A stretch of 64,000 nucleotides of DNA from a virus, in IMG/VR virus record IMGVR_UViG_3300045988_069050, positions 1 to 64,000 of that record, one strand, 5' to 3'. Under the pieces are notes generated by a model. That model worked only from the letters and a program-made list of their open reading frames with translations, did not search any database and was not told the origin of the DNA. Made by a program: the position numbers and the translations under genes. This document shows, one piece after another, positions 47,361 through 49,669 of this stretch. Every line of letters starts with the position of its first letter. Position 1 is the stretch's first letter.

Positions 47361-48374
47361 GTGACCATGTTTGATTATACTTTTGAACCAAAAATTACTA
47401 AGGAATTTCTTCTATCTAAAAACAATGAGGAGACTTACATGACTTATTATCTGGGCATCCCAGTTAAGAAAGGATTGTTCAAGTCTCCTTTGCGTAGTGA
47501 CAGTCATGTCACTTGCAGTTTCTTTAGAGGAAAATCTGGAAACTTGTATTTTAAAGACTTTGCTTCTGGAAAATGTCTCACATTCGAAGGAGTAGTTATG
47601 GAAAAGTATAATTGTAACTACCACACTGCTTTAAGGATTATAGCTAAAGACTTTGGATATACGAAAGATTCTTCCGTAAAGAAAGTTGCAGTGAAAATCC
47701 AGCCTAAGTTTGAAGAAGAGAAACAAACTTTTATTCAGATAGAGGCTAAGGATTTTTCAGAACCTGAGTTGAAGTGGTGGGGAAGTTTTGGTATAACTAA
47801 AGACATCCTATATAAGTTCAAAGTATACAGTTGTAGTACTGTATTTTTGAATGGGAACATATATGCACAATCTGCCCAGCATAGTCCTATATATGGCTAC
47901 TATTTTGGAAAGAAAGAGAACATCGAGCAATGGCGAATTTATATGCCAAAACGAAAGGAGTTTAGATTCATAGGAAATGTTTCAACCAAGACTATTCAAG
48001 GCTATAAGCAATTAGCTAAGAGTGGAAAACTAGTTGTTATAACTAAATCTATGAAAGATGTAATGTGTTTATATTCTTTAGGAATACCAGCTATAGCTCC
48101 CAACTCTGAAACTCAGTTTGTTTCTGATAAGATTTTAGAAGAATTAAAGCAGAGATTCAAATACGTTGTGTTGCTATATGATAATGATTTGACTGGAGTA
48201 CGTTTTACTAATAAGATTAGGAAAGAGCATCCAGAACTAATTGTATCAATGATTCCCAGAAGCACAGGAGCTAAGGATATAAGTGATTATTACCATATGT
48301 ATGGAAGAAAAGGTACACAAGAATTTATTACTAATTACATAAAGAAACTTAAGAAGAATGAAAAAGTAGACTAA
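47361..48374 (+). CDS. DnaG-like DNA primase (zinc-binding N-terminus, Toprim domain with LLYDND)
   Basis: Cys/His cluster near the N-terminus; Toprim E...DxD motif. Confidence 0.75.
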   Translation: MTMFDYTFEPKITKEFLLSKNNEETYMTYYLGIPVKKGLFKSPLRSDSHVTCSFFRGKSGNLYFKDFASGKCLTFEGVVMEKYNCNYHTALRIIAKDFGYTKDSSVKKVAVKIQPKFEEEKQTFIQIEAKDFSEPELKWWGSFGITKDILYKFKVYSCSTVFLNGNIYAQSAQHSPIYGYYFGKKENIEQWRIYMPKRKEFRFIGNVSTKTIQGYKQLAKSGKLVVITKSMKDVMCLYSLGIPAIAPNSETQFVSDKILEELKQRFKYVVLLYDNDLTGVRFTNKIRKEHPELIVSMIPRSTGAKDISDYYHMYGRKGTQEFITNYIKKLKKNEKVD

Positions 48375-48564
48375 TACAAGTGTTACAGCCATCTTTAAGG
48401 ACGGTAGTAGAAAAACTTTTGAATCTGTTGAATTAGCCTCTGAAGGAACTGGTTTGGAGATAAACTCAATCAAAGCTAGAGCTAATAAGCCTGGCTCTGG
48501 AGCAAAATCAAAAGACGGAATTACCTTTGAATGGGCAGACCCCGCAGTTAGAAGAAGTAAGTAG

Positions 48565-48948
48565 GCAAAGAAGAGTAAACAAAAAGGCTCTCAGTATGAG
48601 TTAGAAATAATTCACAAACTTAGAGATATAGGATACGAAGGATGTGTGTCTAGCAGAAGTCAAAACAAATTGGCTGATGCTGACAAAATAGACATTGTTG
48701 ACATGAACAATGAACTTCCGGTTAATATCCAAGCTAAATTTACTCAGAATATGCCTAACTATTTTGATATTAGAGATGCTTGCAGTGATAAGTCAAAGCC
48801 GTTCTGTATATGCTGGAAAAAGGCAGGAAAGAATGGAGAGTCAGCTAGAGGGCAAGTTGCTGTAATCCCAATCAGCTTTTTTTATGAGCTACTAGAAATG
48901 TGCAAGAATGGAGGAATGGAAGGTATATCCAGAGTTTCCGACGTATGA
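48565..48948 (+). pseudogene. Hjc-like Holliday-junction resolvase / PD-(D/E)xK nuclease lacking a canonical start codon; preceded in-frame by TAG (48562-48564) and 64 open codons (48370-48561)
   Basis: KGSQYELEIIHKLRDIGYEGCVSSRSQ...DKIDIVD matches the archaeal/phage Hjc N-terminal pattern. No ATG/GTG/TTG between the TAG and the catalytic KGSQYE. Confidence 0.5.
48855..48900 (+). repeat. direct repeat copy A (AGTTGCTGTAATcCCaAT...TTTTTATGAgcTaCTAGAAATG) flanking the HNH gene
   Basis: About 46-bp imperfect direct repeat with 49376-49423; both encode VAVIPI(S/E)(F/Y)FYELL. Confidence 0.7.
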
Positions 48949-49375
48949 AGTGTCTAATAATGGACAAGTACGAAATAGGAAAAGAGGAAATATATTAAAG
49001 CCTCATGAGGATAAGGATGGATATTTAGGAGTATGCCTATGCTTTGAGGGTAGGAAGTACCATAGAAGAATAAATAGGATAGTTGCTATTACTTTTATTC
49101 CTAATCCCGACAATCTGGAGATAGCTGACCATATTGATAAGGATAGAAAGAATAATTGTGTTTCTAATCTTAGATGGGTTGATACTATTGGAAATAATAG
49201 AAATAAAATTTCTAACTCCAAAGTTGATATTTGTGACAAAGATGGGAACATATTGAAGTCTTTTGATTCTATATCTGAGGCAGCAGAATATTATAATGTA
49301 CCAGATGATAAGATGTGCGCAGCGGTAGTAGTTAATAAGAAAATTGGAGGTTATGTTAAATACTCTGAGAAATAA
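48908..49375 (+). mobile_element. freestanding HNH homing endonuclease (NUMOD4-like N-terminus + HNH_3 NLRWV motif)
   Basis: MEEWKVYPEFPTYEVSNNGQVRN ... DHIDKDRKNNCVSNLRWV; bracketed by direct repeats. Confidence 0.8.
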
Positions 49376-49423
49376 AGTTGCTGTAATACCTATAGAATAT
49401 TTTTATGAATTGCTTAGAAAATG
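49376..49423 (+). repeat. direct repeat copy B flanking the HNH gene (carries the ancestral C-terminus ..ELLRK* and the start of the downstream gene)
   Basis: See copy A. Confidence 0.7.
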
Positions 49424-49669
49424 AAAAAGTTAGTAGTTAAAGGTCCGGTTCCTACGATTAAAAATTGTATAGTTAATGACTTTGATGATGAATATGCTCT
49501 TTATTTAAGGACAGCTAAAAAGAATTGGAGAACAATGGAAGCATTCTCTCTTGAGTTTGATTCCACTTTATCTGATTTGAAGAAAAGTCATTTCATCTAC
49601 GTAGATAGAGAAGACCTAGAGCTATTAATAAAGAAGCGATTGAACGTTATTGAAGTAATCGAGTTATGA
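49421..49669 (+). CDS. hypothetical protein (82 aa)
   Basis: ORF. Confidence 0.5.
   Translation: MKKLVVKGPVPTIKNCIVNDFDDEYALYLRTAKKNWRTMEAFSLEFDSTLSDLKKSHFIYVDREDLELLIKKRLNVIEVIEL

Follow-up and report, generated by a model that had tools for sequence, protein, structure and literature searches.

How can a homing endonuclease gene reside inside a conserved gene of a phage? The prevailing view restricts such genes to introns, inteins and intergenic gaps because insertion into coding sequence is costly. The question is raised by a locus in a 64,000-nucleotide (nt) stretch of viral DNA, positions 1 to 64,000 of IMG/VR record IMGVR_UViG_3300045988_069050, which is referred to here as the window. 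The phage has a genome of about 185 kilobases (kb) and comes from the human gut. Its HNH homing-endonuclease gene is inserted 35 nt ahead of the stop codon of a resolvase-like nuclease gene (gene X) and is bracketed by an imperfect repeat of the end of that gene. An earlier, sequence-only reading of the locus took this repeat for a duplication of the target-site flank that accompanied the insertion. We consider it likely that the locus instead holds a mobile homing cassette, which brings its own substitute for the 3' end of the gene that it interrupts, and not a target-site duplication.

Layout of the Locus

The features on which the argument depends are listed below. Owing to the repeat, the edges of the cassette can be slid by up to 13 nt.

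48358 to 48948, plus strand: gene X, resolvase-like nuclease, ending here in the surrogate tail
48854 to 48866, plus strand: r1, left copy of the 13-nt perfect repeat AAGTTGCTGTAAT and last host-derived stretch of X
48855 to 48900, plus strand: copy A of the imperfect repeat, 46 nt, made up of r1 and the start of the surrogate end (repeat search and local alignment)
48867 to 48948, plus strand: surrogate end, the cassette-borne 3' end of X, encoding ..PISFFYELLEMCKNGGMEGISRVSDV and a stop
48867 to 49387, plus strand: inserted cassette, 521 nt, made up of the surrogate end, the HNH gene and r2
48908 to 49375, plus strand: HNH homing-endonuclease gene, 155 amino acids (aa), I-HmuI-like
49375 to 49387, plus strand: r2, right copy of the 13-nt perfect repeat
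49376 to 49423, plus strand: copy B of the imperfect repeat, 48 nt, the displaced native 3' end of X, encoding ..VAVIPIEYFYELLRK and a stop
49421 to 49669, plus strand: gene Y, 82 aa, without a family match, providing the right-hand homology

The coordinates and sequences of copy A, copy B and the HNH open reading frame (ORF) were all recovered as the sequence-only reading had given them. The repeat search finds a core of 34 ungapped nt with 79% identity and a start-to-start spacing of 521 nt, and the opening 13 nt are the same in both copies (r1 and r2, both AAGTTGCTGTAAT in the window). Local alignment of copy B to the 1,076 nt upstream of it scores 36, as against 19.4 +/- 2.5 and a maximum of 33 in 1,000 Markov shuffles. 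The reading of X continues through copy A to the TGA at 48946-48948 and overlaps the start of the HNH gene by 41 nt, in agreement with the earlier observation that copy A lets the upstream gene run into the HNH start. Copy B begins one base past the HNH stop codon. It keeps the end of the upstream gene, and its TGA overlaps the ATG of gene Y at 49421, again as first described. No in-frame start codon precedes copy B, which is now untranslated and acts as the leader and start of gene Y.

The HNH Gene and Its Product

The identification of the ORF as a freestanding HNH homing-endonuclease gene is borne out by protein comparisons. Its product matches NUMOD4 (PF07463) over residues 2-44 at 49 bits (cutoff 23.4) and the HNH endonuclease family phrog_59 over residues 1-147 (E=4e-36). 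A phmmer comparison with I-HmuI (1U3E) gives E=2.6e-12. The HNH motif iaDHiDkdrkNNcvsNLRWVdtigN aligns with vvDHkDgnkdNNlstNLRWVtqkiN of I-HmuI, and the equivalents of D74, H75 and N96, residues with catalytic roles in that enzyme (PMC12724721), are kept. The gene is neither intron- nor intein-borne, as the insert holds an independent ORF that both starts and stops within it. Because no Rfam family matches between 48000 and 50000 at E<=1, the gene lies outside any recognisable intron. Terminator-like sites were not found at the HNH gene, and promoter-like sites are rarer there than in shuffled sequence. Given the lack of such signals of its own and the 41-nt overlap with the tail of X, the gene is probably expressed from the X transcript. 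HNH paralogues were not found within the window, and close homologues of the gene are confined to the end of X.

Relatives With and Without the Cassette

Related genomes, which are human-gut phage contigs of 95-193 kb in IMG/VR, are polymorphic at this site: 8 carry the HNH gene and about 40 do not. When 48867-49387 is removed, the window aligns with several HNH-less contigs without a gap over 8.3 kb at 99.1-99.7% identity. The empty junction, ...CAAGTTGCTGTAATACCTATAGAATATTTTTATGA..., is letter for letter the left flank of the window, one 13-mer and the rest of copy B, and the nearest single-nucleotide polymorphisms (SNPs) lie at least 59-69 nt away on either side. GenBank MT836281 (here L001, from human faeces), which is 95% identical overall, likewise has no HNH ORF and a single junction of the copy B type. 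The insertion is therefore a clean presence/absence polymorphism, and the gapless alignment upholds the earlier claim that the gene is inserted relative to related phages. Since the one junction present in HNH-less relatives is of the copy B type, X natively ends in copy B, and what was inserted is the distinctive part of copy A together with the HNH gene. The sequence-only reading had also taken copy B as ancestral and had proposed that relatives without the gene should show one junction copy; MT836281 and the roughly 40 contigs do, in the copy B form, including the near-isogenic genomes. It had further reasoned that both copies occurring without the gene would speak against insertion, and none of the relatives examined has both copies without the HNH gene or an HNH remnant.

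MT836281 also differs from the window in ways of its own. It is 97.5% identical to the left of the locus and 99.65% to the right, and only 85% across X (48331-48887 of the window, 1448-2231 of MT836281). Between the primase gene and X its primase C-terminus differs and some 227 nt are added, which include an ORF of 64 aa; the 5' end of X is thus a second mosaic boundary between the two genomes. Co-conversion within X was considered as the cause and ruled out: HNH-less genomes carry the window allele of X, so the mosaic is independent of the cassette. Among HNH-less relatives diversity peaks at 48826-48856 (-40 to -10 from the insertion point), and a conservation trough across copy B follows. 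The peptide at the peak reads ESARGQ, APSVGQ, EPCRGQ or ESCRGE, and one contig (L064) has 9 of its 31 SNPs there. The stretch could encode a variable loop, or the endonuclease target could extend into it. A diversity hotspot left of the insertion was not relied on, as the peak (0.18, against 0.15-0.16 elsewhere) exceeds the surrounding +/-400 nt only modestly.

A Surrogate Gene End With Its Own History

Copy A did not come from the local gene end by duplication and decay. Over 13 in-frame codons, copies A and B differ at 11 of 39 nt and at 2 of 13 aa. Six of the 8 differing codons are synonymous, and so few amino acid changes would arise by random substitution with P≈3e-5. The differences are overwhelmingly synonymous, which argues that the copies diverged as working coding sequences in separate lineages. 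Relative to native ends, the surrogate end has two 1-nt deletions, which take out the native stop codon. X retains its conserved C-terminal ..IPxxFFYELL segment by way of the surrogate end, through which it reads ..VAVIPISFFYELL..

Protein searches yielded HNH variants that are 84, 82, 78, 61 and 59% identical to that of the window, and their contexts were compared. All five share one layout, which runs from the body of X through a short resident stretch and a surrogate end to the HNH gene, and from there to the native end and the next gene. X reads in phase through the surrogate end in each of them (L093, L123, L125, L127 and L124), as it does in the window. The surrogate ends have a Ser/Arg-Phe signature (PISFFYELLEM.., PERFFYQLLKL.., PASFFYDILKI..), have no stop and run 26-41 nt into the HNH start. 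The native ends downstream of the HNH variants have a Glu-Tyr signature (..P[IV]EYFY[EQ]L[LI].. and a stop). Clustering of the variable 27 nt places 7 of 7 surrogate ends in one group regardless of host lineage, and the other group holds all retained ends and all native single ends except those of L066 and L090. Mean distances are 0.21 among surrogate ends, 0.17 among native ends and 0.38 between the two. We read the placement of L090 as noise of a 27-nt comparison, since its protein end is of the Asp-Tyr type. In the X frame of the surrogate end, 6 of the 8 codon differences between the cassettes of the window and L093 are synonymous.

These comparisons indicate that the surrogate end is an old part of the cassette that has been kept by selection as a working C-terminus of X. 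They do not support the proposal of a target-site flank duplication, as copy A falls among the surrogate ends of the other cassette variants, accompanies the HNH gene between backgrounds and differs from copy B mostly at synonymous sites. The companion proposal, that the divergence of the copies marks an event that is not recent, fails too for this insertion. Empty-site genomes match the window at 99-100% in the flanks and in copy B, so the 28% divergence between the copies was inherited from the cassette and was not built up in place. The earlier reading had alternatively allowed that the target of the endonuclease is protected, and this putative protection is the reading that the data favour.

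Mobility, Selection, and Decay of the Cassette

The cassette moves independently of its flanks. It is 99.8-100% identical in seven other contigs, and one of these has flanks that are 87-90% identical to the window. In L095 the cassette is 99.8% identical to that of the window, and the flanks are only 90.3% and 86.9% identical. L093 shows the reverse, with flanks that are 99.5% and 97.9% identical and a cassette that is only 81.6% identical; the synonymous divergence (dS) between the HNH genes of the window and L093 is about 1. L134 has a chimeric cassette with a window-type 5' part and an L093-type 3' part, and across nine junction haplotypes the alleles of the 13-mer and of copy B occur in shuffled combinations.

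The surrogate end and the HNH protein are both under purifying selection. The ratio of nonsynonymous to synonymous divergence (dN/dS) of the HNH gene is 0.07-0.18 in all variant pairs, which indicates that the protein is maintained. Some copies are degenerate. L048 has two homopolymer insertions (at about 49336 in window-equivalent coordinates) that truncate the HNH protein at aa 142, the 3' third of the HNH gene is frameshifted in L125 (2501-2992), and P0002 has a frameshifted copy in which the ORF continues into copy B. Some of these decaying or recombinant cassettes (L048, L125, P0002, L134) may be assembly errors.

A Proposed Homing Cycle

The observations above can be joined into a mechanism. 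During a mixed infection, the HNH enzyme would nick or cut the uninterrupted end of X in an HNH-less phage. The break would be repaired by copying the cassette, with the body of X as the left homology and copy B and gene Y as the right homology. The surrogate end would then continue the reading frame of the X body already in place, such that X stays functional, while the native end would be displaced beyond the HNH gene and Y would keep its native leader. The carrier would be immune to its own enzyme. The left junction diverges right after the 13-mer and the right junction right before it, and so neither would rebuild the intact site. Immunity would also come from the replacement of GAATAT (Glu-Tyr) by Ser/Arg-Phe codons in every cassette lineage. 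Because copy B, with the 13-mer and the whole native end, would otherwise be cut, the recognition site would have to span the 13-mer and reach past both of its ends. By sequence arithmetic, copy A is 2 nt shorter than the native end, and with those 2 nt restored X and the HNH ORF would share one frame. Such an in-frame arrangement may be the ancestral state and recalls the fungal elements described below; it would arise by coincidence with a chance of one in three.

A bolder version of this mechanism holds that the surrogate end is an immunity patch that co-evolves with the enzyme, that the replaced GAATAT marks the core of the recognition site, and that certain HNH-less genomes carry cleavage-resistant scars of cassette loss. 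We put it forward tentatively, as somewhat less probable than its negation. It draws on the finding that GAATAT has given way to Ser/Arg-Phe codons in every cassette lineage down to 59% HNH identity, with the rest of the peptide kept.

The candidate scars are found in L066 and L120, which have no HNH gene and in which X ends in PISFFYELLKK and a stop. Site by site, L066 equals copy A of L125 up to ..CCAATCAGTTTT and copy B past the shared TTTTTATGAATTA. An A-type left half joined to a B-type right half is the remnant expected of a deletion by recombination between the copies. The alternative is that this end is the original donor allele. L125, which belongs to the broad lineage of L066, has a native end of the Glu-Tyr type, and every other native end is of the Glu/Asp-Tyr type. 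We lean toward a loss scar over the donor allele, and the lean is not a strong one; the flanks of L125 and L066 are only 86-90% identical, which limits the comparison. An import of copy A from an L066-like lineage was considered and dropped, as HNH-bearing L125 in that broad lineage retains its Glu-Tyr native end. Another end occurs in HNH-less L015/L065 (IMGVR_UViG_3300010163_000004), where X ends in GTAATCCCAATTGAATAT.., with a copy-A-like start (ATC CCA) and a rest that is copy-B-like. It could be a second type of scar, a partial conversion or a natural allele.

Alternative Explanations

The explanation given in the sequence-only reading, in which insertion duplicated about 46 bp of local target and the copies later drifted apart, accounts for the two homologous copies that flank the HNH gene and for their identical opening 13 nt. 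We give it almost no credence. Drift in place does not produce copies that are 28% apart between flanks that match empty-site genomes almost perfectly, nor a set of differences that random decay would so rarely make synonymous. In the clustering, copy A is placed beside the surrogate ends of other cassettes and apart from copy B of its own genome, and the same surrogate end recurs in a background with 10-13% diverged flanks. A narrower duplication, in which a transposition-like insertion makes a staggered cut and a true target-site duplication of the 8-13-nt repeat r arises at each event, fares barely better and is highly improbable. In its favor, r is lineage-specific and the same on both sides in the window (AAGTTGCTGTAAT twice), in L095 (AAGTAGCTGTAAT twice) and in L124 (TGCTATGATTCC twice). 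Across junction haplotypes, though, the r1 and r2 alleles are concordant in only 5 of 9 and discordant in the other 4, and on this discordance the reading of the 13-mer as a target-site duplication is rejected. The length and position of r also vary between lineages, concordant pairs are explained by conversion tracts that end at the edge of heterology, and the insert encodes the HNH ORF and no transposase or recombinase. Nor does the locus qualify as a transposable element, since most of the 46-nt "repeat" is not derived from the target.

Could the HNH-bearing state instead be ancestral, with the polymorphism produced by repeated deletion between the repeats and with no recent homing? Recombination within the perfect 13-mer would restore a clean empty site, L066 and L120 resemble a product of loss, and degenerate cassettes are present in L125, L048 and P0002. 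More distant relatives (L090, L091, L041-44) have no cassette, however, and a cassette that is 99.8% identical within flanks of 87-90% identity requires transfer. Two cassette lineages with a dS of about 1 also sit in near-isogenic genomes, and strong purifying selection on HNH is unexpected for a relic that is only being lost. We regard a history of loss alone as unlikely. Only marginally less so is the proposal that the HNH gene is kept for a benefit to the phage, such as the cutting of competing co-infecting relatives, and not, or not only, by selfish homing. The low dN/dS of the gene fits this proposal, and an advantage of an endonuclease in phage competition is documented (PMC11620839). 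The gene is present in only about one sixth of related contigs, on the other hand, and several copies are frameshifted. A benefit to the phage would in any case be compatible with a homing cassette and would not replace it.

A homing cassette with a substitute gene end is thus the explanation that we prefer, and several points weigh against it. On the side of the enzyme, HNH_3 reaches only 21.5 bits (Pfam cutoff 24.8), and the C-terminal NUMOD1 match is weak at 14.5 bits (Pfam cutoff 22.8). On the side of the gene, the surrogate tail alters the last two residues of X and adds a 14-aa extension; under the standard code, moreover, X of the window bears a private nonsense codon at 48562, which leaves the gain from an intact X uncertain in this genome. 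The original donor of the surrogate end was not found in viral contigs or metagenomes: a peptide-pattern scan of viral contigs for a Ser-Phe end followed by HNH without copy B returned the known contigs and 5 chance matches in non-coding frames, and the one metagenome scan turned up a contig like L066, a contig like the window and a chance match. In copy B the complete native end is preserved along with 13 nt of the sequence ahead of it, and a target wholly inside this stretch would mean self-cutting. Finally, the cleavage site of a freestanding endonuclease can be hundreds of bases away from its gene (PMC2988022), and so the target may not be the junction at the end of X.

Gene X, Gene Y, and the Reading of TAG

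Gene X matches phrog_244, RusA-like Holliday junction resolvase, with E=3.4e-10. Its core matches Hjc weakly (E=0.37), and its N-terminus has a weak match to the NUMOD-like part of I-HmuI, of the type found in homing endonuclease genes (HEGs). The N-terminal stretch of about 60 aa (48376-48561) resembles the DNA-binding tail of an HNH endonuclease. In the distant relative L124 (1267-2526) a complete NUMOD4 and HNH_3 unit is fused in frame ahead of the X core to give a 419-aa protein, and X of the window is colinear with the last 180 aa of this fusion (42% identity, E=2e-47). The 5' end of X may thus be what is left of another, older endonuclease, or X may itself be a composite nuclease. Gene Y has no family match. 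The genome also encodes a primase.

Under translation table 11 only 48646-48948 of X is called as an ORF, and the longer X requires that TAG at 48367-48369 and 48562-48564 be read as sense. The first of these, at codon 4, is kept in 22 of 22 distinct relatives, and the sole start codon lies upstream of it. The in-frame TAG at 48562-48564 of the window is CAA or CAG in all aligning relatives except the distant L092 (ACC). Conversely, CAA at 48661-48663 of the window is TAG in L063. Codon 20 of the HNH gene (CAA, 48965-48967) reads TAG in L039/L093, and in L125 this codon is an in-frame stop. The source gene callers rendered the TAGs of P0004 and P0009 as Q, and only 2 of 47 long plus-strand ORFs of the window end in TAG. 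Genetic code 15 occurs in gut phages (PMC9523058). From these codon correspondences TAG may possibly be read as glutamine in this phage group. Counter to such a reading, no suppressor tRNA is present among the 26 tRNAs of the window, and TAG-bridged ORFs show no window-wide excess. Position 17151 is the only other plus-strand site of the window where same-frame ORFs of at least 50 aa (62 and 216 aa) are split by one TAG, and it is a candidate second read-through site. The 26 tRNA genes are on the plus strand between 5247 and 29362, a large complement for a phage, and include 3 tRNA-Tyr (one with the unusual anticodon ATA), 3 tRNA-Met and 2 tRNA-Cys.

Comparison With Known Systems

The closest parallels are found in fungal mitochondria. 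Mobile open reading frames (mORFs) with a foreign C-terminus are known from atp6 of Allomyces macrogynus and from atp6, atp9, cox2 and nad3 of Glomus sp. (PMC3630166), and in Endoconidiophora partial C-terminal duplications of atp6 and cob adjoin freestanding HEGs (PMC6279837). The mORFs share with the present locus the order of host gene body, in-phase surrogate C-terminus, endonuclease ORF and displaced native C-terminus. At the DNA level the two ends are poorly conserved (63.5% identity in Glomus atp6, 72% here) whereas the protein sequence is kept, the native end matches HEG-free relatives, and the surrogate clusters apart in trees (PMC3630166). The systems differ in that the fungal enzymes are of the LAGLIDADG or GIY-YIG type and are found in an organelle genome, whereas the enzyme described here is an HNH protein of a double-stranded DNA (dsDNA) phage. 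Fungal surrogates span 50-280 nt next to an ORF of about 1 kb, compared to about 35-80 nt and a 468-nt ORF here, and the mORFs of atp6 and nad3 are in phase with the host gene whereas the HNH ORF is two bases out of phase (PMC3630166). In addition to what is described for the mORFs, the phage locus shows evidence of repeated transfer at the population level, several cassette lineages and a candidate loss scar.

The logic of restoring a gene end is also known from integrative elements. Elements that integrate into the 3' end of a tRNA or protein gene supply, within attP, a substitute for that end and leave the displaced one downstream. They use integrases and identical core sequences, whereas the cassette has no recombinase and its replacement is non-identical.

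Phage homing endonucleases provide the enzyme family and the mode of transfer. I-HmuI (1U3E) and the HNH genes of lactococcal Skunavirus phages have a similar N-terminal NUMOD4/HNH catalytic half in which D-H...N is kept, a variable C-terminal half that binds DNA (putatively so in the present gene), a patchy presence in related phages and a location in the replication or early region (PMC12724721). Unlike the present gene, I-HmuI is intron-encoded and the Skunavirus genes are at intergenic insertions; the same paper describes no replacement gene end, and the word stem "duplicat" is absent from it (PMC12724721). The seg and mob genes of T4, which spread by "intronless homing", are freestanding and lie between or at the ends of conserved genes. 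Five of 12 such ORFs overlap the upstream gene with no translation-initiation region of their own in evidence, and transfer is expected via flanking homology with co-conversion (PMC2988022). These resemble the gene described here, but T4-type genes are either intergenic or have split the host gene into two polypeptides (mobE/Aeh1 nrdA, mobA/gene 60/39). The T4 review likewise describes no replacement gene end and does not contain "duplicat" (PMC2988022), and none is described in a paper on nuclease genes at recombination boundaries of ICP1. A literature search on phage homing endonucleases with partial duplication, which covered few subscription journals, returned organelle papers only.

A more distant homologue is found in L129 (1336-2947, Logan SRR10209683), where the HNH gene is 47% identical and follows an ORF of 401 aa that we read, from its SPPY motif, as methyltransferase-like. 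The 401-aa ORF has no Pfam family in its stored annotation and overlaps the HNH start by 41 nt. A duplicated gene end that brackets the L129 HNH gene was looked for and was not found. An overlap without a duplicated end suggests that the surrogate-end design is specific to the X-associated clade.

Significance

Within the literature searched, the principle is known from fungal mitochondria and the setting is new, with an HNH enzyme, a dsDNA phage and population-level evidence. That a different enzyme family has the same arrangement in gut phages suggests convergent evolution. A practical lesson for annotation is that a small ORF flanked by short, diverged copies of a gene end is a recognisable signature. 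Such copies also set traps, as the upstream gene looks extended and the "pseudo-end" is left unannotated. The natural variants at this site, which include empty sites, five cassette lineages, frameshifted copies and a candidate scar, make up a substrate panel for mapping the specificity of the HNH enzyme. If the surrogate end is indeed an immunity patch, then invasion, degeneration, loss and resistance, the whole homing cycle, would be seen at one site. Besides introns, inteins and intergenic gaps, a phage homing endonuclease gene would have a third option, in which the element brings along a re-coded spare for the gene end that it displaces and can thereby sit inside a conserved gene. The spare gene end plausibly also shields the carrier from its own enzyme.

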